Below, piece by piece: positions 1 to 48,698 of a DNA stretch of 64,000 nucleotides. This DNA comes from Spirochaetota bacterium. GTDB lineage: Bacteria; Spirochaetota; UBA6919; CBDBPB01. Every line of letters starts with the position of its first letter. Positions within the stretch are counted from its first letter, which is position 1. The notes under the pieces were generated by a model. It was given only the letters and a program-made list of their open reading frames with translations. It did no database searches and had not been told where the DNA came from. A program made the translations under genes and the position numbers. Location of the stretch: contig CBDBPB010000007.1 of the NCBI GenBank assembly GCA_965208615.1, positions 288,001-352,000 on the forward strand, given 5' to 3'.

Positions 1-32
1 AAAAGGCTGGACTTCCAGTGGAAAAGGAGTAA
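1..32 (+). CDS. dsrM: DsrM, C-terminal fragment (window starts inside the gene)
   Basis: Frame 3 reads KAGLPVEKE-stop just before dsrK; resembles the DsrM C-terminus and fits dsrMKJOP order. Confidence 0.7.
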   Translation, partial: KAGLPVEKE

Positions 33-35
33 TAT

Positions 36-1658
36 ATGTCAAAACTACCTAAGCCGGATGAGTTATCTAATGTAGATTATACCCTACCTAAGACTGAGTG
101 GATAAATACTCCAACTGAGCTTAAGGAAACTATGATTTGTTATGGTGCTAAGGAAGATAAGCTAAAAGCCGTTGACTTTCCAAATGCAAGAAGTTGGGAT
201 CCTAAATTGGATGACTGGAAGCTCCCTGATAATTGGAAGGAGATTATATTAGAGGGTATTAGTGAGCGTTTGGAGAAGTACAGGTCATTTAGGCTATTTA
301 TGGATATATGTGTACGTTGTGGTGCTTGTGCGGATAAGTGTCATTTTTTTATTGGTACTGGCGATCCTAAGAATATGCCTGTTTTACGTGCTGAGCTTTT
401 GAGATCGGTTTATAGAAGAGATTTTACTACTGCGGGTAAGGTTTTTGGTTCATTAGTTGGTGCAAGGGATCTTACTATTGATGTACTAAAGGAATGGTGG
501 TATTATTTCTTTCAGTGTACTGAATGCCGTCGTTGTTCTGTATTTTGTCCTTATGGCATTGATCAGGCTGAGATTACTATTATAGGTAGGGAGCTTTTAA
601 ATTTATTAGGTCTTAACACTGACTGGATCGCTGGTCCTGTAGCTAATTGTTATAAAAAGGGTAATCATATTGGTCTTGAGCCTAAGGTTATTGTTGATAC
701 CATAAAGTTTTTGTGTGAGGATATTGAAGAGATTACTGGTATTAAGATTGAGCCTCCTATTAACAAAAAAGGTGCTGATATATTATTTGTTGCTCCATCG
801 GGTGATCTTTTTGCTGAACCCGGTATTTATACCTGTATGGGCTATCTTATGCTATTCCATGAGCTTGGTTTGAATTATACATGGAGTACTTATGCGTCTG
901 AGGGTGGTAACTTTGGTTTTTTTACTAGTAATGAGATGGCAAAGAGATTAAATGCTAAAATATATGCTGAGGCTAAGAGATTAGGGGTAAAATGGATTAT
1001 AGGCGGTGAATGTGGACATATGTGGCGTGTTATTCATCAATATATGAATACATGGAATGGTCCTGCTGATTTTTTAGAAGAGCCTGTTTCTCCTGTAACG
1101 GGTACTAAGTTTACAAATAGTACTTCTACTAAGATGGTTCATATTGCCGAGTTTACTGCTGATCTTATTAAAAACGGTAAGATTAAGTTAGACCCTAGTA
1201 GGAATGATCATTTAGCTATTACTTTTCATGATTCATGTAATACAGCTCGGGCATTAGGTATGTTTGAGGAGCCACGTTATATTATTAATAATATTTCTAA
1301 TAGCTTTTATGATATGCCTGAAAATACTATTAAAGAAGTAACTTTTTGTTGTGGTAGTGGTGCAGGGTTAAACGCTTCTGAGAACATGGAGCTTAGAATG
1401 AAAGGTGGTTTTCCAAGGGCTAATGCGGTTAAGTATGTTGCAAATAAATATGGGGTTAATATGCTTGCCAATATTTGTGCTGTAGACAGGGTTACATTAC
1501 CTCCTCTAATGGATTATTGGGTTCCTGATGTAGGGGTAGCGGGATTACATGAACTTATTGGAAATGCTCTTGTTATGACTGGTGAAACTGAAAGAGAAAC
1601 TGATTTAAGGGGTGAACCGTTACCAGATAATGATCACAAGGAGAAAGAAGATGTATGA
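36..1658 (+). CDS. dsrK: DsrK, Fe-S/CCG-domain subunit of DsrMKJOP
   Basis: CVRCGACADKC, CTECRRCSVFCP, GECGH, HDSC, FCCG motifs; context. Confidence 0.97.
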   Translation: MSKLPKPDELSNVDYTLPKTEWINTPTELKETMICYGAKEDKLKAVDFPNARSWDPKLDDWKLPDNWKEIILEGISERLEKYRSFRLFMDICVRCGACADKCHFFIGTGDPKNMPVLRAELLRSVYRRDFTTAGKVFGSLVGARDLTIDVLKEWWYYFFQCTECRRCSVFCPYGIDQAEITIIGRELLNLLGLNTDWIAGPVANCYKKGNHIGLEPKVIVDTIKFLCEDIEEITGIKIEPPINKKGADILFVAPSGDLFAEPGIYTCMGYLMLFHELGLNYTWSTYASEGGNFGFFTSNEMAKRLNAKIYAEAKRLGVKWIIGGECGHMWRVIHQYMNTWNGPADFLEEPVSPVTGTKFTNSTSTKMVHIAEFTADLIKNGKIKLDPSRNDHLAITFHDSCNTARALGMFEEPRYIINNISNSFYDMPENTIKEVTFCCGSGAGLNASENMELRMKGGFPRANAVKYVANKYGVNMLANICAVDRVTLPPLMDYWVPDVGVAGLHELIGNALVMTGETERETDLRGEPLPDNDHKEKEDV

Positions 1659-2088
1659 TAGGTCTAAAATTATTATTGGTATAGTTATATTTTTAGGGGT
1701 TATTGCTTTTCCTTTTTATTATAACAATGTTTTAGGAAAGAGTTCTGATGTTAAGGCTAAGGGTAAAAGTAATGTTTTAGCTGGAAAAAAGGATGTGGAT
1801 GCCTTACACTTTCATATTGGAGGCGAGAAAAAACAAAGAACCCTTAAGGATATGAGAGCTAATCACATGAAGATATTGGATAGCTGGCGAAATGAAGTTG
1901 TTAGAGATGGTATTCGTAAGCCTGGAAGGAGCTTACAAAATGGATGTCTTAGTTGTCATGCTAAAGAGAAAAAGAATGCTATGAAAATTGGGGATAAGGA
2001 GGCTACTGCTTGTGAAGACTGCCATGTTAAGACTGGAACGCAGTTGTACTGCTGGGAATGCCATTTTGATCCGAAGGAGAGTAAGTAA
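1651..2088 (+). CDS. dsrJ: DsrJ, triheme cytochrome c
   Basis: ATG 1651 after AAGGAG; N-terminal hydrophobic helix, MRANHM, three CxxCH. Confidence 0.92.
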   Translation: MYDRSKIIIGIVIFLGVIAFPFYYNNVLGKSSDVKAKGKSNVLAGKKDVDALHFHIGGEKKQRTLKDMRANHMKILDSWRNEVVRDGIRKPGRSLQNGCLSCHAKEKKNAMKIGDKEATACEDCHVKTGTQLYCWECHFDPKESK

Positions 2089-2939
2089 TGGATAAAAATG
2101 ATAATAAAACTGAGGTTCAATCTATTGAAGAGAAAATTGGCAGAAGACAGTTTATAAAGATAGCTGGTATATCTACTTTATTTGGAGCTGCTGGTATATC
2201 TGCCTTACAGATTCTTAAGCCTGGCTCACTGGATGCTTTTCATACATATACTAATAAAATACAATGGGCTATGGTGGTTGATATTAGAAAGTTTAATTCT
2301 GATGAAGACTTTAAAATTCTTATTGACGCTTGTCATATAAATCATAATGTACCTCTTATACCTAATAATGAGGATGGTTCTGAGAATAAGGACGTGGTAA
2401 AGTGGATTTGGAGGGATAGTTATGAGCATGTTTTTGTAGAAAGTGGTCATCGTTTTTTATCCAATAGAGTTAGTAATAAGAATGTTTTAGCATTATGCAA
2501 TCATTGTACTGAACCACCATGTATTAGGGTATGCCCTACTAATGCTACTTTTAAGAGGGTTAATGATGGGATTGTTATGATGGATCAGCATAGGTGTATT
2601 GGTTGTAGGTTTTGTATGGCGGCTTGTCCTTATGGAGCAAGGAGTTTTAATTTTAGGGATCCAAAACCTTATATTAAAATGCGTAATCCTTCTTATCCTG
2701 CTCGTAGTAGGGGAGTTGTTGAGAAGTGTACTTTTTGTGCTGATATCATTCATATTGAGGATACTAAGCCTTATTGCGTAGAAGCATGTGATAGTAAAGA
2801 GGAACTTAAAGGTGGTCTTACTTTTGGCAACGTTAATGATAAAAATTCTAAGGTTAGACAGCTTCTTAAAGAGTACTATACGGTAGTTCGTAGGCCTGAA
2901 ATTGGTACTAAACCAAATGTGTATTATATAATATCCTAA
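2088..2939 (+). CDS. dsrO: DsrO, periplasmic Fe-S protein
   Basis: Tat signal GRRQFIK; CNHCTEPPCIRVCP, CIGCRFCMAACP, CTFC. Confidence 0.95.
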   Translation: MDKNDNKTEVQSIEEKIGRRQFIKIAGISTLFGAAGISALQILKPGSLDAFHTYTNKIQWAMVVDIRKFNSDEDFKILIDACHINHNVPLIPNNEDGSENKDVVKWIWRDSYEHVFVESGHRFLSNRVSNKNVLALCNHCTEPPCIRVCPTNATFKRVNDGIVMMDQHRCIGCRFCMAACPYGARSFNFRDPKPYIKMRNPSYPARSRGVVEKCTFCADIIHIEDTKPYCVEACDSKEELKGGLTFGNVNDKNSKVRQLLKEYYTVVRRPEIGTKPNVYYIIS

Positions 2940-2952
2940 GGAGTAATTGGTC

Positions 2953-4104
2953 ATGTTGGAAAAAGTGATTTCTGGAAGTCGGATATATTGGGGCTGGATT
3001 TTATTTTTATTAGTGGTAATAGCTATTGGTTCTGCCGCTTATGCTTATCAGTTTATTAATGGACTTACTGTTACTAATATGGGCAGGGATGTTTCATGGG
3101 GATTATATATAGGTCAGTTTACTTTTTTTGTAGGGGTTGCGGCCTCGGCTGTTATGTTGGTTATTCCATATTATTTACATAATGCAAAGGTATTTGGTAG
3201 GTTGGTTATATTTGGAGAGTTTTTAGCTATACCTGCGGTTATAATGTGCCTATTATTTGTTATTGCTGATATGGGAAAGCCTATGAGGATGCTAAACGTT
3301 GTTATTTACATGAGGACTAATTCTATATTATTTTGGGATTTTTTAGCATTAAATGGATATTTACTCTTAAACATTATTATTGGTTGGTTTGCTTTAGGAG
3401 CAGAGAGAAAGGGTATTAGTTATCCAAAGTTTGTTAGGCCGCTAATATATTTATCAGTTCCGGTGGCATTTAGCATTCACACGGTAACAGCTTTTATTTA
3501 TGCTGGTTTACCTGTTAGGCATTTATGGCTTACAGCTATTATGGCGGCAAGGTTTTTGGCATCTGCATTTGCGGCTGGACCTGCACTTTTAGTTTTACTT
3601 CTTTTTATAACACAAAAGCTTAGCAAGTGTGATTTAAAGTTAGAGCCTATTAAGGCTATGGGTAAGATTGTTACTTATGCTATGATTGCTAATGTATTTT
3701 TTTTAGGATTAGAGTTATTTACGGCTTTTTATAGTGGTATTGAGTCTCATCAGCATCCATTTGAGTATTTATATGTTCACGCTAGTTTAATTTCGCCTCT
3801 TATGTGGGTTTCGGCCGTATTGGGGCTTGGATCTTTGGTATTATTAATTACGCCATCTTTTAATAGTAACTTTAATTTAGTTAGAATAGCATGTTTAATG
3901 GTTTTTATATCCCTGTGGATAGATAAAGGTTTTGGATTAGTAATAGGTGGGTTTAATCCTAGTCCTGCGGGTAAGTTTGTTGATTATTGGCCTACATTAG
4001 TTGAGGTTTTAGTTAGTCTTGGTATTTGGGGAATTGGTGCATTGGTGTTGACTATTTTGTATAAGGTGATTTTATCTGTGAGAAAAGAGATTAGAGGGTT
4101 TTAA
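2953..4104 (+). CDS. dsrP: DsrP, NrfD/PsrC-family membrane subunit
   Basis: MLEK start, VSWGLYI, ADMGKP, multiple TM helices; follows dsrO. Confidence 0.95.
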   Translation: MLEKVISGSRIYWGWILFLLVVIAIGSAAYAYQFINGLTVTNMGRDVSWGLYIGQFTFFVGVAASAVMLVIPYYLHNAKVFGRLVIFGEFLAIPAVIMCLLFVIADMGKPMRMLNVVIYMRTNSILFWDFLALNGYLLLNIIIGWFALGAERKGISYPKFVRPLIYLSVPVAFSIHTVTAFIYAGLPVRHLWLTAIMAARFLASAFAAGPALLVLLLFITQKLSKCDLKLEPIKAMGKIVTYAMIANVFFLGLELFTAFYSGIESHQHPFEYLYVHASLISPLMWVSAVLGLGSLVLLITPSFNSNFNLVRIACLMVFISLWIDKGFGLVIGGFNPSPAGKFVDYWPTLVEVLVSLGIWGIGALVLTILYKVILSVRKEIRGF

Positions 4105-5494
4105 GTTTTTAATTTTGATTAAGTGCTATTCAAAAGTATAGGCTGTTTTATTGTATTATTTAAAGTTAGTCTAGTTATAGATTAGGCTATTTTATGATAG
4201 ATTTTAGTGGGTATTATTGTAAAAGGTTTTTAAGTTTTTAAGTTTTTAATTTTGATTAAGTGCTATTCAAAAGTATAGGACGTTTTATTGTATTATTTAA
4301 AGTTAGTCTAGTTATAGATTAGGCTATTTTATGATAGATTTTAGTGGGTATTATTGTAAAAGGGTTTATAGTTTTTAATTTTGATTAAGTGCTATTCAAA
4401 AGTATAGGACGTTTTATTGTATTATTTAAAGTTAGTCTAGTTATAGATTAGGCTATTTTATGATAGATTTTAGTGGGTATTATTGTAAAAGGTTTTTAAG
4501 TTTTTAAGTTTTTAATTTTGATTAAGTGCTATTCAAAAGTATAGGACGTTTTATTGTATTATTTAAAGTTAGTCTAGTTATAGATTAGGCTATTTTATGA
4601 TAGATTTTAGTGGGTATTATTGTAAAAGGGTTTATAGTTTTTAAGTTTTTAATTTTGATTAAGTGCTATTCAAAAGTATAGGACGTTTTATTGTATTATT
4701 TAAAGTTAGTCTAGTTATAGATTAGGCTATTTTATGATAGATTTTAGTGGGTATTATTGTAAAAGGGTTTATAGTTTTTAATTTTGATTAAGTGCTATTC
4801 AAAAGTATAGGCTGTTTTATTGTATTATTTAAAGTTAGTCTAGTTATAGATTAGGCTATTTTATGATAGATTTTAGTGGGTATTATTGTAAAAGGTTTTT
4901 AAGTTTTTAAGTTTTTAATTTTGATTAAGTGCTATTCAAAAGTATAGGACGTTTTATTGTATTATTTAAAGTTAGTCTAGTTATAGATTAGGCTATTTTA
5001 TGATAGATTTTAGTGGGTATTATTGTAAAAGGGTTTATAGTTTTTAATTTTGATTAAGTGCTATTCAAAAGTATAGGACGTTTTATTGTATTATTTAAAG
5101 TTAGTCTAGTTATAGATTAGGCTATTTTATGATAGATTTTAGTGGGTATTATTGTAAAAGGTTTTTAAGTTTTTAAGTTTTTAATTTTGATTAAGTGCTA
5201 TTCAAAAGTATAGGACGTTTTATTGTATTATTTAAAGTTAGTCTAGTTATAGATTAGGCTATTTTATGATAGATTTTAGTGGGTATTATTGTAAAAGGGT
5301 TTATAGTTTTTAATTTTGATTAAGTGCTATTCAAAAGTATAGGCTGTTTTATTGTATTATTTAAAGTTAGTCTAGTTATAGATTAGGCTATTTTATGATA
5401 GATTTTAGTGGGTATTATTGTAAAAGGTTTTTAAGTTTTTAAGTTTTTAATTTTGATTAAGTGCTATTCAAAAGTATAGGCTGTTTTATTGTAT
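4098..5494. repeat. Tandem array 1: 10 full units plus a partial 11th, 129 or 137 bp each
   Basis: AATTTTGATTAAGTGC recurs at 4111, 4248, 4377, 4514, 4651, 4780, 4917, 5046, 5183, 5312, 5449; no unique spacers, no ORF >=60 aa in the track. Confidence 0.98.
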
Positions 5495-5571
5495 AGGTAA
5501 ATATATTAAGATGACGTTTTATGATAATTTAGTTATGACTTTATAACAAGGTATAGAACGTAAAACGCAAG

Positions 5572-5875
5572 ACATATAACGTAAAGGCAAGTGAATTTTA
5601 GATTTCTTTATGGAACAGGAAAGTTAAGATATTCATGAAAAAGTTATATTCTTGTTCTACAGGGCTAAACTTTCTATGCTCTTTAAGTACTGTTTAAATG
5701 CCTTAGCAATGAACACAAAATATCACTTTTTATGCAAGTAGTCATCACTACGAGAGCTATTAAGAATCCCTTACTGAGACTAAGAATTATACACCTTTAT
5801 TAAGTGATAACGGATTTGCCTTTCCATAAAGGGATAGAGCGGATTCTTTAAATATTATATATTGACGTTATGTGT
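5572..5875 (+). ncRNA. Putative 304-nt structured RNA / dispersed element, copy 1 (family unknown)
   Basis: About 88% identical to 47171-47474; ends pair (ACATATAACGT/ACGTTATGTGT); inner helices CTTTATGGAA/TTCCATAAAG and TATCACTT/AAGTGATA; hairpin GTAGT-catc-ACTAC. Confidence 0.65.
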
Positions 5876-5910
5876 AAAGCTTAGGCGAATTAACTATAAT
5901 TCTTTATATG

Positions 5911-6000
5911 TTAAAACACTTAAACTAACTAATATAAAAACTAATCCACTAAGAACCTCTTTACAACAGCATAACTAAAACACTCCATAACAAATAGCTA
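5911..6000 (-). repeat. Degenerate inverted copy of the array-1 unit (right arm of element copy 1)
   Basis: Reverse complement aligns collinearly with the unit: GCTATTT..TATG..TTTTAGT..TTGTAAA..AGGTT..AGTTTTTA..TTAAGTG. Confidence 0.55.
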
Positions 6001-6186
6001 TTCCCCATCTTGCGAACTCTAAAACCATTTAATAATCCTTTGCAATAGATTTTAAATACGTTTCTGCTTGACTTTTCATAGAAATTTATTATATTATAAC
6101 AGCTTTATTTTTAAATGATATAGCTATATAGATGCCGATCACTTGTAGACTGTCATATTAAGCTAAAATGTATAATAGGGGGAATT

Positions 6187-7236
6187 ATGAAAAAAATATT
6201 TTTTATATTACTATCTCTATCTCTATTAATAGGATGCGAACAGGATAGTGTTAGTAAACTTGCTATGGATAATGGTGGAGGCACTGGTGGTACTGGTGGT
6301 ACTGGTGGTACTGGTGGTACTGGTGGAGGCTCTGGTGGAGGTACTGGTGGAAATGGTGGAAATGGTGGAAATAATGATGGAGGTACTGGTAACTCTACTG
6401 GTAAAGTTTTTGTAAAACTAGGTGTTAGTAATGGAAATGGAAGATCTTGGTCTACTGCTTATAGTGATTTACAAAAAGCTATTGAGGAAGCTCATAAAGA
6501 ATCAAAAGCAACCGGAAAAACGGTTAAAGTCTATGTAGCCGCTGGAACCTATACTCCATCAGGTTGGCCTAATAAAGGTGGAGTTGTTACTAATAAGGGT
6601 AAACACTTTTCTTTGCGTAATAATGTAGAGGTATACGGTGGTTATCCTCGATCTGGTGGTAACTATAGTAACTATAGGGTTAATAAGACTATTTTAAGTG
6701 GTGATCTTGGTGGAGAGAAGGTATACCACGTTTTTTATCATCCAAATGGAGTGATAAATACTACAGCAAAGCTACAAGGAGTTACCATTACTAATGGTTA
6801 TAATGAAGGTCAATATGGGGGAGGCATGCATAATGGTAGAGGCTCCAGCATAACATTACTAGACTGTACTTTTAAGGATAATACTGCACATTATGGTGGT
6901 GGAATGTATAATGGTCCTGATTCTAATGTAAAATTAGAAAACTGTATCTTTAAAAATAATACAGCTCTTAATGGTAATGGAGGCGGAATACATAATGGTG
7001 ATGGTTCTAGGGTAGAATTGAAAAACTGCACCTTTGAAAATAACACTGCTAGATATTATGGTGGTGGAGTATATATTAGCTATGGTACTACTACTACGTT
7101 TACAGGCTGTACCATTAAAAGTAATACTGCTCACTATGGTGGTGGTGGAATATATAGTTTTAATTCCGAACTAAATTATGTAAACAAAGGTAATACAATT
7201 GAAGATAATGACCCTGACAATGTAAAGTCTTTATAA
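6187..7236 (+). CDS. Lipoprotein with Gly-rich linker and right-handed beta-helix (Pmp-like) repeats
   Basis: Lipobox LLIGC; (GGT)n tract; repeated FxxNTAxYGGG; VYVAAGTY and TILSGD motifs. Confidence 0.85.
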   Translation: MKKIFFILLSLSLLIGCEQDSVSKLAMDNGGGTGGTGGTGGTGGTGGGSGGGTGGNGGNGGNNDGGTGNSTGKVFVKLGVSNGNGRSWSTAYSDLQKAIEEAHKESKATGKTVKVYVAAGTYTPSGWPNKGGVVTNKGKHFSLRNNVEVYGGYPRSGGNYSNYRVNKTILSGDLGGEKVYHVFYHPNGVINTTAKLQGVTITNGYNEGQYGGGMHNGRGSSITLLDCTFKDNTAHYGGGMYNGPDSNVKLENCIFKNNTALNGNGGGIHNGDGSRVELKNCTFENNTARYYGGGVYISYGTTTTFTGCTIKSNTAHYGGGGIYSFNSELNYVNKGNTIEDNDPDNVKSL

Positions 7237-7285
7237 AAGGGTTATTAGCTAAAACTACTATCAATATTAATAATTGATAATGTTA

Positions 7286-7303
7286 ACCCCCTTTTTAAGG
7301 GGG
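7286..7303. terminator. Probable intrinsic terminator hairpin
   Basis: CCCCCTT...AAGGGGG inverted repeat after the lipoprotein stop. Confidence 0.6.
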
Positions 7304-7600
7304 CTAATACATTTAGGGTATTACGCTATAGCATCCTATAGGCTATTGTAAATATTATAAGATATCCAGTTTTAGCAGATAATGTCAATATAATTATTCT
7401 TAAAATGCTTTTTATTATGTTTAATAGAGCAATAAATAACAGCTTACCATAAATATACTATTAAAATATCCCCCTATTTCATTTTTAATATAAGATAAGG
7501 AACTTTCTTTAAAAGCCATTTGTTATAATATATAATCTTATAGATATCTTTTTAATGCTAATTATTATAGTTAGATAGAAACTTATTGTTAGGAGGAATA

Positions 7601-7957
7601 ATGAAGATAGGGGTATTGATATATGAGGGTCCTTATAACCACCAGGCGTCTGATAGTGCATATAACTTTATAAAAGCCGCTATGGATAAGGGACATGAGA
7701 TTATTAGAGTATTTTTCTATCACGATGGAGTTATAAACGTTACAAAGCTTATGGAACCACCATCTGACGATAGACATATTGCAAAGCGGTGGTCTGAGAT
7801 TGGTGAAAAGGGAGTTGATGTTATTGCATGTATAGCGGCGGCTAAGCGTAGGGGTATGGTTGATGATATTTTAACTCCTAATACCAGAATATCTGGTTTG
7901 GGTCAGTTGGTTGAGATGGGGGTTGATGCTGATAAAGTTGTAGTTTTTGGTGATTAA
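7601..7957 (+). CDS. dsrE: DsrE sulfurtransferase subunit
   Basis: AGGAGG then ATG 7601; VFFYHDGV, ACIAAAKRRG (active Cys), ISGLGQL. Confidence 0.93.
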   Translation: MKIGVLIYEGPYNHQASDSAYNFIKAAMDKGHEIIRVFFYHDGVINVTKLMEPPSDDRHIAKRWSEIGEKGVDVIACIAAAKRRGMVDDILTPNTRISGLGQLVEMGVDADKVVVFGD

Positions 7958-7975
7958 CATATAAAAGGAGATTTT

Positions 7976-8386
7976 ATGAGCGGAAAGAAGTTTATGTTTG
8001 TTATGAGAAAGGCTCCTCATGGTACTATTTACTCTTATGAGGGTTTAGAGGTTGTATTAATTACTGCAAGTTATGATCAGGACATATCCATGGCATTTAT
8101 TGATGATGGTGTTTTTGCACTTAAAAAGGGCCAGGATACTAGTGGGATTGGTATAAAGGGTTTTTTACCTACTTATGATGTTCTTGGGGATTATGATGTA
8201 CATAAGCTCTATGTAGATGTTGATTCAATGAATGACAGGGGGCTTACTAAGGATGATCTTGTTGATCTTGTTTATGAGGACGATGAAGATGAGGATAATC
8301 CAAAAGAAATTAAGCTTATTCAGTTTTTGAGCCGCAAAGAGATTATGGCTAAGATGAGTGAGCAGGATGTTTTACTACCTTATTAG
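7976..8386 (+). CDS. dsrF: DsrF
   Basis: RKAPHGTIY, FIDDGVFAL; lies between dsrE and dsrH. Confidence 0.92.
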   Translation: MSGKKFMFVMRKAPHGTIYSYEGLEVVLITASYDQDISMAFIDDGVFALKKGQDTSGIGIKGFLPTYDVLGDYDVHKLYVDVDSMNDRGLTKDDLVDLVYEDDEDEDNPKEIKLIQFLSRKEIMAKMSEQDVLLPY

Positions 8387-8413
8387 AACTGCTAATTAAA
8401 AGGAGGATTGGTT

Positions 8414-8707
8414 TTGTTACATACAATTAATAAGTCACCTTATACAAATACCAGTTTAGAGAGTTGTTTAGGCTTTATAAATGAGGGGGATAGTGTATTA
8501 CTTTATGAGGATGGTGTGCTTGGTGCTCAGGCTGGTAGTAGTGTTGAGCCTATATTAAAGGATTTTAGTAAAAAGTGTAAGATTTATGTTTTATCTGAGG
8601 ACTTAAAAGCTAGGGGTATATCTAATACTTTGGATTTTGTAGAGTTGACCGACTACTCAGGTTTTGTAGACTTAGTTGAAAAGGATAAGATTCTTGCGTG
8701 GCTCTAA
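8414..8707 (+). CDS. dsrH: DsrH
   Basis: TTG 8414 gives MLHTINKSP; LYEDGV, DLKARGI, DYSGFVDL. Confidence 0.92.
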   Translation: MLHTINKSPYTNTSLESCLGFINEGDSVLLYEDGVLGAQAGSSVEPILKDFSKKCKIYVLSEDLKARGISNTLDFVELTDYSGFVDLVEKDKILAWL

Positions 8708-9396
8708 GTAAAGAAGGTATAAATAAAAGTAAGTTACGGTTTTTATTGTTAGAAAACAATATTGAGGCGATAAAAGAACTTTCTTTTGTAAATGGAAACG
8801 CTCTAATAAAAATACTTTCTAGGCTATTGTATGATAGGGATTATCTGGTAAGATGGAGGGTGGTAAGTGCTTTTGGTGAGCTAAGTGTTATTAGTCCTGA
8901 TTTAGTTAGGCGGACTGTTAGTCGTTTGGCATGGACTCTTAATGATGAGGCTGGATGTAGGAATTGGGGTGCTCCTGTTGTATTAGCTGAGATTGGTTAT
9001 CATGACTTATCCCTTGTGGATGAGGTTATAAGGATAGTTCTTCATTATATTGATGATCCCGAAACGTCATTACCTCCAAATCGTAATGTGGATATTGTAG
9101 TGGGAGTGCTTTGGTCTATTGCTAGATTTGCTAAAAGCCATCCTAACATAGCCAAAGAGGTTGTTGGACTGGTTATACCCTTTTTAGCTGATGAGAATAG
9201 TAATATTAGAGGTCATGCACTGTGGGCATTAGAGTCCCTTAGCCAATTTATAAAGGCAAGTGATAATAAGGATATTTTAAACATTCTTTTGCTTTTGAAA
9301 AAAGATTGTACTAAATTTAATCTCTATTTAGATAGACAGATTATTTCTTTAGAGATAAATAAATTAGCTATTAATATTTTAGCAAAGTTAAAATAA
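8698..9396 (+). CDS. HEAT-repeat protein (DVU0298-like)
   Basis: RWRVVSAFG, LAWTLNDEAG..WGAP, IRGHALWAL; overlaps the dsrH stop. Confidence 0.7.
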   Translation: MALSKEGINKSKLRFLLLENNIEAIKELSFVNGNALIKILSRLLYDRDYLVRWRVVSAFGELSVISPDLVRRTVSRLAWTLNDEAGCRNWGAPVVLAEIGYHDLSLVDEVIRIVLHYIDDPETSLPPNRNVDIVVGVLWSIARFAKSHPNIAKEVVGLVIPFLADENSNIRGHALWALESLSQFIKASDNKDILNILLLLKKDCTKFNLYLDRQIISLEINKLAINILAKLK

Positions 9397-9419
9397 CTAT
9401 TTTAAGGAGAAGTGATAAT

Positions 9420-45852: not shown

Positions 45853-47100
45853 TTAGGGTTGTTTATTCTGTTTAGTTTATCTATTTAAAGCTTAAAAAAC
45901 ACAGATTATGAAGTTATAGAAAGTGTTTTGATGAAGGTAAAAAGGCAGTGAAATAGGTTGTTGACAATGGGGATAGATATAAACATGTAGGTTTAGGTTT
46001 TGAGTCAGACGGAGTAAGTATATTTATTTTTTTATTTAAGGTTAAGGGTTGTTTATTCTGTTGGCAAGAGGTATTAGTCTTTTGTGAGAGAGGTGTTACT
46101 AATTGTTTTAGTAGTGTAGATAAAAAGTATCTAGTTAGTTTATCTATTTAAAGCTTAAAAAACACAGATTATGAAGTTATAGAAAGTGTTTTGATGAAGG
46201 TAAAAAGGTTATGAAATAGGTTGTTGACAATGGGGATAGATATAAACATGTAGGTTTAGGTTTTGAGTCAGACGGAGTAAGTATATTTATTTTTTTATTT
46301 AAGGTTAAGGGTTGTTTATTCTGTTGGCAAGAGGTATTAGTCTTTTGTGAGAGAGGTGTTACTAATTGTTTTAGTAGTGTAGATAAAAAGTATCTAGTTA
46401 GTTTATCTATTTAAAGCTTAAAAAACACAGATTATGAAGTTATAGAAAGTGTTTTGATGAAGGTAAAAAGGTTATGAAATAGGTTGTTGACAATGGGGAT
46501 AGATATAAACATGTAGGTTTAGGTTTTGAGTCAGACGGAGTAAGTATATTTATTTTTTTATTTAAGGTTAAGGGTTGTTTATTCTGTTGGCAAGAGGTAT
46601 TAGTCTTTTGTGAGAGAGGTGTTACTAATTGTTTTAGTAGTGTAGATAAAAAGTATCTAGTTAGTTTATCTATTTAAAGCTTAAAAAACACAGATTATGA
46701 AGTTATAGAAAGTGTTCTGATGAAGGTAAAAAGGCAGTGAAATAGGTTGTTGACAATGGGGATAGATATAAACATGTAGGTTTAGGTTTTGAGTCAGACG
46801 GAGTAAGTATATTTATTTTTTTATTTAAGGTTAAGGGTTGTTTATTCTGTTGGCAAGAGGTATTAGTCTTTTGTGAGAGAGGTGTTACTAATTGTTTTAG
46901 TAGTGTAGATAAAAAGTATCTAGTTAGTTTATCTATTTAAAGCTTAAAAAACACAGATTATGAAGTTATAGAAAGTGTTTTGATGAAAGTAAAAAGGTAG
47001 TGAAATAGGTTGTTGACAATGGGGATAGATATAAACATGTAGGTTTAGGTTTTGAGTCAGACGGAGTAAGTATATTTATTTTTTTATTTAAGGTTAAGGG
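45853..47100. repeat. Tandem array 2: about 4.7 units of 263 bp
   Basis: TTAGTTTATCTATTTAAAGC recurs at 45872, 46135, 46398, 46661, 46924. Confidence 0.98.
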
Positions 47101-47170
47101 GATATTATTTAATAATTCAGTTATCATTTTATGATAGATTTATGAAAAAGTCTACAAGGTAAAAAGTAAG

Positions 47171-47474
47171 ACATATAACGTAAAGGCAGATAGATTCCAG
47201 ATTTCTTTATGGAACAGGAAAGTTAAGATATTCATGGAAAAGTTATTTTCTTGTGTCATACAGGTTATCCCACTATGCTTTTTAAGTACTGCTTAAATGC
47301 CTTAGCAATGAACACAAAATATCACTTTTTATGCAGGTAGTCATCACTACGAGAGCTATTAAGAATCTCTTTCTGAGACTAAGAATTATAGACCTTTATT
47401 AAGTGATGACGGATTTGCTTTTCCATAAAGGCTTAGAGCAGATTATTGGAATATTCTATATTGACTTTATGTGT
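47171..47474 (+). ncRNA. Putative 304-nt structured RNA / dispersed element, copy 2
   Basis: Same length as 5572-5875 with about 37 differences; same helices retained. Confidence 0.65.
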
Positions 47475-47489
47475 AATTTTCTATGGGGA

Positions 47490-47667
47490 TTAAAAATAAT
47501 AGAACAGCTTATACCTATAAAAATTGATTAACTTAGAACGTTTTTACAATAAACTACTAAAACATTTGATAACAATATTTGCTAAAACGTTTGTTCATCT
47601 CAACTTATTTCTGAAGTGACCGCAATTAATGAAAAGCTTTTTACTAGTTTAACTTAGATAAACTAAA
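47490..47667 (-). repeat. Degenerate inverted copy of array-unit sequence (right arm of element copy 2)
   Basis: Reverse-complement matches: 47655-47667 to 45871-45883 (13/13), 47553-47564 to 46104-46115 (12/12), 47601-47611 to 45950-45960 (10/11). Confidence 0.65.
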
Positions 47668-48227: not shown

Positions 48228-48698
48228 GTTATTCTCCTTGTTATTTTACTAGTTTTTCTAATAGTATAGGTCAAAAGTATTTTAAGATAGCATATATATC
48301 TAACTTTTTTAAAAGGTAGATAAAATATACCTAAAATTATTTTAGAATAGTTTTTTATCTCTAGAATAATTAGTAACCTAATTATAATAGTTAATAACGT
48401 ATACTTTTTATTTATAGAGGCAGTATTATAGTTTAGAGGTTTTGGTAAATTATTAATGTTCGATTAGTTAATTTATATATTGCTAAAAAACTATGTCGAA
48501 TTAGGAAATTATTATATTTCATTTTTAATTATACTATTACATATAATTTTTGATACTTTTTTAGGTATAAAAGCCAGACAGATTAAATTTAGGGTCTTTT
48601 AGTGTCGATTTAATTAACAAGTCTCATAGAGAGTATTATTTATTTATTTATTTATGAGATATTGTAAAAAAAAATTTGGATATAAGGAGATGTACCTT

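Follow-up and report, generated by a model that had tools for sequence, protein, structure and literature searches.

What kind of DNA places the same 304-nt segment, preceded by a tandem array, at separate intergenic sites of one bacterial genome? The question is raised by two loci, here called A and B, within a stretch of 64,000 nt (the window, C7:288001-352000; C1-C9 are the contigs of the same assembly) from a genome of the Spirochaetota. An earlier note on this window had described a common layout of array and core at both loci, and this layout is real: Tandem Repeats Finder (TRF) finds an array each time, and the shared 304-nt core accompanies it. The assembly comprises 2.46 Mb in 9 contigs with 31 % GC at 99.4 % completeness, and the FlaA protein encoded in the window, together with its relatives, places it among uncultured Spirochaetia near Brevinematales. 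The answer that we favour, with a probability of roughly 0.6, is that the loci are two copies of a lineage-specific, orphan family resembling miniature inverted-repeat transposable elements (MITEs), with a constrained core and a 5' arm that is especially prone to microhomology-mediated duplication and unequal exchange.

The family is considerably wider than the two loci. A BLASTN search with the core against the genome yields 56 matches, 41 of them full-length (at least 250 nt) and about 15 fragments. The full-length cores are distributed over six of the nine contigs (18 on C4, seven each on C7 and C1, five on C2 and two each on C3 and C8), and full copies and fragments together reach eight of nine. 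One of the 41, C4_514678, has an identity of only 69 % and was omitted from the core alignments. All copies are intergenic, lie on either strand and have unrelated neighbours. In addition, about 17 loci harbour a mini form of ~140 nt, and 10 of them are away from any full core. The 41 copies, their inverted ends and the mini form substantiate the non-autonomous mobile element proposed in the note and show it to be a dispersed family bounded by terminal inverted repeats (TIRs). At C1:261866-262007 the right flank of a mini-MITE runs directly into the middle of a truncated core, an arrangement that suggests insertion into, or deletion beside, an older copy.

The closest-related copies are physical neighbours. 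Eight copies are found within about 120 kb of C4 (83-201 kb), seven of them mutually 94-98 % identical and the eighth, C4_172087, nearest to C4_388540; this cluster (C4:83,000-201,000) is the youngest of the family. Other close pairs are C1_42771/C1_84355 (98.5 %) and C7_2707/C7_24161 (97 %). As judged from the alignments, such similarity between neighbours fits either local hopping or local conversion. With respect to the adjacent genes, about 28 of 40 copies have a divergent gene upstream, and 25 of 41 have a co-directional gene downstream. Among the neighbours whose start faces the element, at least 12 code for lipoproteins or for secreted proteins, including several PMP-like ones, while the rest are housekeeping genes. 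Three element-adjacent genes we take from their N-termini to be dnaK, flgG and a thioredoxin gene, names not confirmed by search.

The anatomy of the element was read from aligned array-free copies and from tiling all loci on a single-copy reference, C4_388540+ (760 nt extracted). Without an array the long element measures about 700-750 nt. It starts with the left TIR, continues through the relic of a gene tail and a linker with a 15-nt palindrome into the 304-nt core, and ends in a tail with one or two right terminal repeats. The left repeat, which begins GTTACTAATTGTTCTAG and is written (TT)GTTACTAATTGTTCTAGTAGTGTAG, occurs once per type-I array unit, and most of the 89 matches obtained in a fuzzy genome scan fall within arrays. 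About 70 nt of the left end are common to the long element and the mini-MITE, the ends of which (GTTACTAATTGTTCTA... and ...CTATAGTAATTAGTAAC) are mutually inverted and, compared by eye, identical at 15 of the first 16 nt. The linker palindrome TATCATTTTATGATA has a perfect match in 21 of 41 copies; with up to two mismatches allowed, 36 copies contain it. In the tail, one or two right-end motifs (CTACTAAAAC...TAACAA and CTAAAACGTTTGTTAAC) are inverted versions of the left repeat.

In the reference copy the TIR extends over 20 nt with 80 % complementarity. Among the long copies, 16 of 24 reach at least 14 matches out of 20 between their ends, a level attained by 2 % of random controls, and ungapped comparison of the ends gives a mean of 12.7/20 versus 9.65 in controls. 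Since the long copies are related, the 16 of 24 demonstrate inverted ends at the level of the family and do not amount to 24 independent confirmations. The element combines several of the features by which MITEs are recognised: it is short (<~800 bp) and non-coding, it has TIRs where its conservation ends, and it occupies many dispersed intergenic sites. The parts of the element have a mosaic distribution among the copies. The idea that the core is a mobile unit of its own was dropped, as apparent core-only copies still have a diverged linker and tail.

The arrays are concentrated on one side of the core. TRF on the flanks detects a 5' array in 18 of the 41 copies, with periods of 74-318 nt; relative to the core anchor, these arrays end between -209 and +18. 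A 3' array is seen in three copies, two of which also have a 5' array, and 22 copies have no array at the TRF threshold applied. The earlier note had named a majority of cores without adjacent arrays as a finding that would refute its reading, and by a narrow margin this is so in number (22 of 41 lack one); the enrichment is still overwhelming. Across the genome TRF reports 58 arrays (score of at least 200, period of at least 60), 25 of them with a unit identity of at least 90 %. Of the latter, 16 lie on the 5' side of a core, three on the 3' side and six elsewhere, so that 19 of 25 are found at the element; the remaining arrays in the genome are mostly coding repeats of 74-85 % identity. Together with the 18 of 41 copies, this upholds the proposal that the 5' arm has been amplified independently at many loci and far beyond chance. 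The 5'-arm arrays total 14.7 kb.

The repeated units are of several kinds. Some begin with the left repeat and stop at an inner point that varies (periods 74, 110, 169, 201, 203, 208 and 263), others consist of the gene-tail segment alone plus about 50 nt (144-146) or of the gene tail and the linker (158-165), and composites have periods of 222 and 318. The unit at locus A, about 133 nt long and diverged, joins the left-end repeat to the linker and lacks the gene tail. Unit boundaries are locus-specific, and the junctions display microhomologies of 2-8 nt in the form of short imperfect direct repeats, for example TTGTTA of the left repeat versus TTTGTTAATG inside the arm, GGGA-TAT, GGT, and TA. 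Three arrays take in DNA that does not belong to the element: 45 nt at locus B, GGT at C1_406367, and the 3' tail of the neighbouring gene at C2_151186. Within arrays the units are 84-100 % identical (at least 93 % in 16 of 18 arrays); across loci the arms are about 81 % identical.

To judge from these units and their boundaries, the tandem duplications are many and independent among loci. The microhomology junctions, the locus-specific breakpoints and the presence of flanking DNA in units point to illegitimate duplication and unequal exchange; each array was probably founded by one illegitimate event and then grew in place by unequal exchange or slippage. The same features, i.e., short microhomologies, differing breakpoints and flank in the units, speak against the RNA-based, rolling-circle or template-jumping copying that had been suggested for these arrays, as does the absence of RVT_1, Y1_Tnp, TnpB and IS110 matches in the assembly. 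A polar replication barrier was also considered and rejected, the presence of an array being independent of orientation to GC skew (11/27 versus 7/14).

The alternative that survives best, although we consider it unlikely, is active site-directed amplification. A trans-acting enzyme that is encoded elsewhere or belongs to no known family would recognise the terminal repeat, the linker palindrome or the core and nick the DNA or stall replication there, leading time and again to tandem re-copying of the DNA alongside, and the arrays would then be a product of the biochemistry of the element itself and not of passive slippage. Such an enzyme would account for the side bias (18 5' arrays versus three 3' arrays, and 19 of the 25 high-identity arrays) and for the units with periods of 74, 110, 169 and 201, in which the first position coincides with that of the left terminal repeat or lies only a few bases away. 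The ability of arrays to absorb adjacent non-element DNA and the constrained length of the core, as for a nucleoprotein platform, would agree with it as well. However, some units lack the terminal repeat altogether (positions 129-224 and 157-258 of the reference), the junctions resemble ordinary microhomology events, there is no orientation effect relative to replication, and none of the 11 Pfam families searched provides a candidate enzyme in the assembly. In a related formulation, which we regard as doubtful to the same degree, the core would act in cis as a nucleoprotein or RNA module and cause its neighbourhood to amplify via a trans-acting factor at the core, the palindrome or the terminal repeat. 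If true, a mobile element would be manufacturing copy-number-variable satellites beside genes, often those of surface lipoproteins, and might tune them.

The core itself evolves differently from the sequences around it. Of the 41 copies, 33 have a core of exactly 304 nt and four have one of 303 nt. Fourteen copies run without interruption from the left repeat into the tail. Counting substitutions alone, their identity falls from 0.90-0.92 for the core to 0.81 for the arm and 0.68 for the tail, and the core is substituted about half as fast as the arms. Its 86 variable columns are accompanied by one gap run, compared to 0.12-0.25 gap runs per variable column in arm, linker and tail, and a central block of 156 nt reaches a mean column identity of 95 % (30 copies). 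Slow substitution and the near-absence of indels are, at the level of the alignment, good evidence for purifying selection on the core, to the uniformity of which gene conversion could also contribute. No coding potential was detected: the longest stop-to-stop frame in any of the six frames has 38 aa, and the variation shows no 3-base periodicity. A 20-codon frame (MKKLFSC...) with a lipobox-like start was discarded, its amino acids not being conserved in locus A.

Another way to account for a core of fixed length would be to see in it a multi-copy non-coding RNA gene or a regulatory leader, with arms and arrays as baggage on the promoter or processing side. Slow substitution would agree with such a role. 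Moreover, the core contains nested inverted pairs, ACATATAACGT/ACGTTATGTGT at its ends and CTTTATGGAAC/GTTCCATAAAG at a constant spacing of 192 nt in both window copies, and in the latter pairing two copies show a change from G-C to A-U. However, while a few changes in the inverted pairs are compatible with pairing, several are not. Fold z-scores of single sequences amount to -1.87, -0.34, -1.10 and -1.30. For the alignment-based tests, RNAalifold was run on both strands of 40 and of 30 cores, mutual information was scanned, stems were sought systematically and pair counts were compared with shuffles. The RNAalifold consensus has -31.3 kcal/mol with a covariation term of -2.29 and two-sided changes in three of 72 pairs, and five covariation measures are equalled by 67, 32, 174, 355 and 61 of 500 shuffles, none of them going beyond shuffles. 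Thus, neither folding, stem search, mutual information, z-scores nor shuffles lend support to a structured RNA, and the description of the core as structured in the earlier note is not supported. Rfam contains no relevant match to the core, either at the gathering threshold or at E up to 1, and scanning the two loci and the reference copy for promoters and terminators returns shuffle-level counts and no conserved signal. Taken together, an RNA identity appears unlikely as well. If the family is MITE-like, our best guess for the core is a DNA-level platform for protein binding, which may be a cause of the instability of the neighbouring DNA.

The arm points to yet another connection. In many long copies, the ~130 nt that follow the left end contain a stop-to-stop frame of 42 codons ending in ...DNGDRYKHVGLGFESDE before the stop. 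This is the decayed end of a gene for a PMP-like lipoprotein, in which the stop and a T-run are still present. The relic DNA is about 75-80 % identical to the 3' ends of seven genes of the PMP-like family, and the peptide pattern KKxVK...YKxV...ES is also found in the C-termini of a family of 17 PMP-repeat lipoproteins. Genes of this PMP-repeat/beta-helix family lie at 6187-7236 of the window and elsewhere at C2:88749-90524, C2:115736-118189, C8:87569-89587 and other sites; they contain degenerate coding repeats of 75-81 nt, and several members divergently adjoin copies of the element.

One may therefore ask if the repeats are recombination or expression modules of a variable lipoprotein family, comparable to the homology sequences of relapsing-fever Borrelia, and not transposable at all. 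The gene tail within the arm, the facing lipoprotein or secreted-protein genes (at least 12, several of them PMP-like) and the mosaic of element parts between copies would be in line with this proposal. However, most copies lie beside housekeeping genes such as dsrP, panD and pgsA, and the mini form with its inverted ends is scattered independently. In addition, comparison in matching orientation shows no similarity of the core to 5' regions from the 17 family genes, which also disposes of the idea that it is the upstream region of the next PMP-like gene. We consider a Borrelia-type system improbable. Finally, units of 74-318 nt at 93-100 % identity are unresolvable with short reads and array sizes are given as assembled, but an origin of the arrays in misassembly of a repetitive family is hardly credible in view of 18 loci with distinct units, unique flanks and internal variants (e.g., the 129/137-nt alternation at locus A) in an assembly of only 9 contigs and 99.4 % completeness.

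The two loci of the window (Table 1) illustrate how different individual copies can be. At locus A, unit variants of 129 and 137 nt alternate and build higher-order repeats of 266 and 403 nt, periods at which TRF also scores the array; each unit combines a diverged stretch resembling the left terminal repeat with a copy of the linker that includes TTTTATGATAG. At locus B, the unit consists of the left end of the element (the terminal repeat and an arm of ~220 nt that includes the gene-tail relic) and 45 nt of non-element flank, and the terminal repeat is found at 46095, 46358, 46621 and 46884. The gap between array and core is 66-73 nt at both loci. The similarity of the two cores and the common linker motifs, both put forward in the note, are borne out: window 5560-5880 and 47159-47476 (C7:335159-335476) are 89 % identical over about 318 nt, and TTTTATGATA and ACAAGGTA occur in both linkers. 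The inverted arm 3' of the core fares less evenly. It is clear at locus B, where 46883-46907 and 47550-47574 are 84 % complementary over 25 nt, and only weak at locus A (5289-5307 versus 5948-5966, 19 nt, 79 %; 5418-5449 versus 5935-5966, 32 nt, 72 %).

Table 1. Parts of the two long copies and of the solo mini-MITE in the window (window coordinates; copy numbers as assembled).
Feature	Position	Strand	Description
Locus A, tandem array	4099..5494	+	TRF period 137, 10.4 copies, 93 % matches
Locus A, linker	5495..5571	+	Diverged copy of the 15-nt palindrome region (TTTTATGATA) plus ACAAGGTA
Locus A, core (304 nt)	5572..5875	+	Ends ACATATAACGT...ACGTTATGTGT; nested inverted pair CTTTATGGAAC/GTTCCATAAAG
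Locus A, 3' tail	5876..5993	+	Two motifs resembling the right terminal repeat, 5948-5966 and 5972-5993
Locus B, tandem array	45872..47100	+	TRF period 263, 4.7 copies, 98 % matches
Locus B, linker	47101..47170	+	Palindrome TATCATTTTATGATA plus ACAAGGTA
Locus B, core (304 nt)	47171..47474	+	89 % identity to the core of locus A
Locus B, 3' tail	47475..47599	+	Right TIR 47550-47574; second right-end motif 47582-47599
Solo mini-MITE (~140 nt), between pgsA and flaA	48241..48380	+	Left repeat from near 48250; inverted right repeat near 48358-48377

The genes around the two loci are those named previously: an NrfD/DsrP-like gene (2947-4104) and DsrE (7586-7957) at locus A, which is directly followed by a beta-helix/PMP-like lipoprotein gene, and PanD and a CDP-alcohol phosphatidyltransferase (pgsA) at locus B. 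The NrfD/DsrP-like and DsrE genes form part of a dsr-type gene set in positions 1-9400 of the window; to our knowledge, genes of this type are unusual for Spirochaetota. Two further repeats of the genome may be mentioned here. A segment of 5.2 kb with approximately six open reading frames (ORFs) exists as a 98.5 % identical inverted duplicate at C3:10639-15823 and C7:425841-431041, and the C7 copy is adjoined by a core fragment of 193 nt (C7:424637-424829). At C7:162651-165087, small paralogous genes (106-132 aa) are arranged in tandem with a period of 358 nt and 97 % identity; they are unrelated to the element.

A non-autonomous family would be mobilised by an enzyme encoded elsewhere, and the search for such a partner extended over 11 Pfam families of transposases, reverse transcriptases and recombinases, with profiles that found their targets in named control genomes. 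The profiles for IS110, TnpB, DDE_Tnp_1, RVT_1, Y1_Tnp, rve, DDE_3, Transposase_mut and ISL3 have no match in the assembly. Enzymes of the IS110 (PF01548), TnpB (PF07282), Y1 (PF01797) and reverse transcriptase (PF00078) types thus find no match in an assembly that is 99.4 % complete, and the copy beside a reverse transcriptase, HUH, TnpB or IS110 gene that the note proposed to look for does not turn up. The Phage_integrase profile identifies two Xer-sized tyrosine recombinase genes. One of the two (C4:85925-86446) is situated ~2 kb from one copy of the C4 cluster.

The sole relic of a DDE transposase is of the IS1595 type (C3:157399-158328, L059:1090-2019; Zn-ribbon_IS1595 and DDE_Tnp_IS1595), and it is split by a TAA into frames of 199 and 101 codons. 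Its 3' end overlaps the end of an opposite-strand gene for a type I restriction-modification methylase/specificity fusion. The locus shows no ungapped match to the MITE repeat within three mismatches and no flanking inverted pair; a 16-nt stretch just past the stop (L059:2027-2042) resembles the left repeat of the MITE with one gap in direct, outward orientation, which can serve as a lead only. The IS1595 family produces an 8-bp target duplication, whereas no such duplication is seen at the MITE copies. Neither an examination of multi-copy ORFs nor a self-BLAST of the genome revealed any multi-copy insertion sequence, and no autonomous partner is found among the neighbours of solo ends and diverged copies.

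Relatives of the element were sought more widely. It is not found in the genome of the closest FlaA relative, and the nearest genomes available for comparison belong to the same order only. An exact 26-mer of the element has no match in public collections of genomes and metagenomes, and collections of plasmids and phages contain no match to the element either. A degenerate 20-mer of the left repeat gives 26 and 47 single matches in two public collections, from unrelated taxa and with no convincing inverted partner; by a rough estimate these are about the number expected by chance. Keyword searches of the literature, the only kind made, yielded no description of it.

If the family is indeed MITE-like, its history may be sketched as follows. 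The element would have spread through intergenic DNA by means of a transposase that can no longer be recognised in the assembly, the recent spread being presumably mostly local. The arrays would be secondary, starting with a first duplication between short imperfect direct repeats in or beside the 5' arm, after which the repeat would expand and contract in place by unequal exchange or replication slippage. A separate initial duplication followed by local growth would leave each locus with its own unit.

Several observations weigh against this account. Long copies have a right terminal repeat that has diverged further than its counterpart in the mini form, and DNA as AT-rich as this frequently contains inverted matches of 70-80 %. 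No consistent target-site duplication could be established: among about 12 well-bounded copies, three have six of eight flank bases matching (C7_2707 has AGCTCT on both flanks). No autonomous partner emerges from the 11 Pfam families, which leave two Xer-sized genes and one broken gene of the IS1595 type. Nor is there an empty site for comparison, the element not being found in 40 relatives searched by BLAST or in 150 other genomes of the phylum searched with a sequence-only covariance model. Furthermore, ordinary MITEs are best conserved at their ends and not in the middle, so that the constraint on the core requires an extra function. Finally, the account gives no explanation for the concentration of duplications on the 5' arm.

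How do these arrays compare with known systems? In eukaryotes, dispersed satellite-like long tandem repeats are common and often born from transposons. Satellites have arisen there from MITE, foldback and Helitron-type elements, and alternative transposition of Ac/Ds produces tandem duplications. As in those cases, the arrays described here go back to subterminal sequence of a non-autonomous DNA transposon and have expanded independently at each insertion, but the eukaryotic examples have known transposases. We know of nothing of comparable scale in bacteria.

Among bacterial repeats, the closest in design is BrickBuilt of Porphyromonas gingivalis, described as a MITE with 19 intergenic copies that make up 0.44 % of a genome of 2.3 Mb (PMC4596501). 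In BrickBuilt, a conserved leader and tail with small inverted ends enclose a 23-nt minisatellite of 1-22.8 units. Both families are non-coding, intergenic and species-restricted and combine a locus-variable tandem repeat with inverted-repeat ends. However, one 23-nt unit is used in all copies of BrickBuilt, whereas the units here measure 74-318 nt, with content and breakpoints that vary between loci, and the arrays are found at one arm, sometimes including flanking host DNA, and not in the middle of the element. The indel-free 304-nt core is without a counterpart in BrickBuilt. Dispersed satellites of long, non-coding repeats are rare in a survey of 261 reference genomes, which in the portion available names Leptospira interrogans and Methanocella conradii only (PMC6749651). 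The satellites of L. interrogans resemble the present ones in belonging to a spirochete and in placing non-coding tandem repeats at several sites. Their families have units of 37-69 nt with 3-6 arrays each of the same unit, and neither a conserved core nor terminal repeats are described in that portion of the survey. With respect to these accounts, so far as they are available, the present family is set apart by its long, locus-specific units, by their origin from one arm and sometimes its flank, and by a core that is locked in length.

A bacterial case of satellite DNA derived from a mobile element is rare. Here, one small genome has witnessed 18 independent births of arrays from the same arm, and it thereby offers a natural series for how a mobile element seeds bacterial satellites. 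At the same time, the core has kept an identical length in 33 of 41 copies despite an average substitution divergence of ~10 % between the copies compared, and has no reading frame, supported fold or known relative. Should this core neither bind a protein nor be transcribed, the family would still be a caution for the assembly and annotation of such genomes. If it does one or the other, an uncultured spirochete lineage could have in it a new device for regulation or for structuring the genome.

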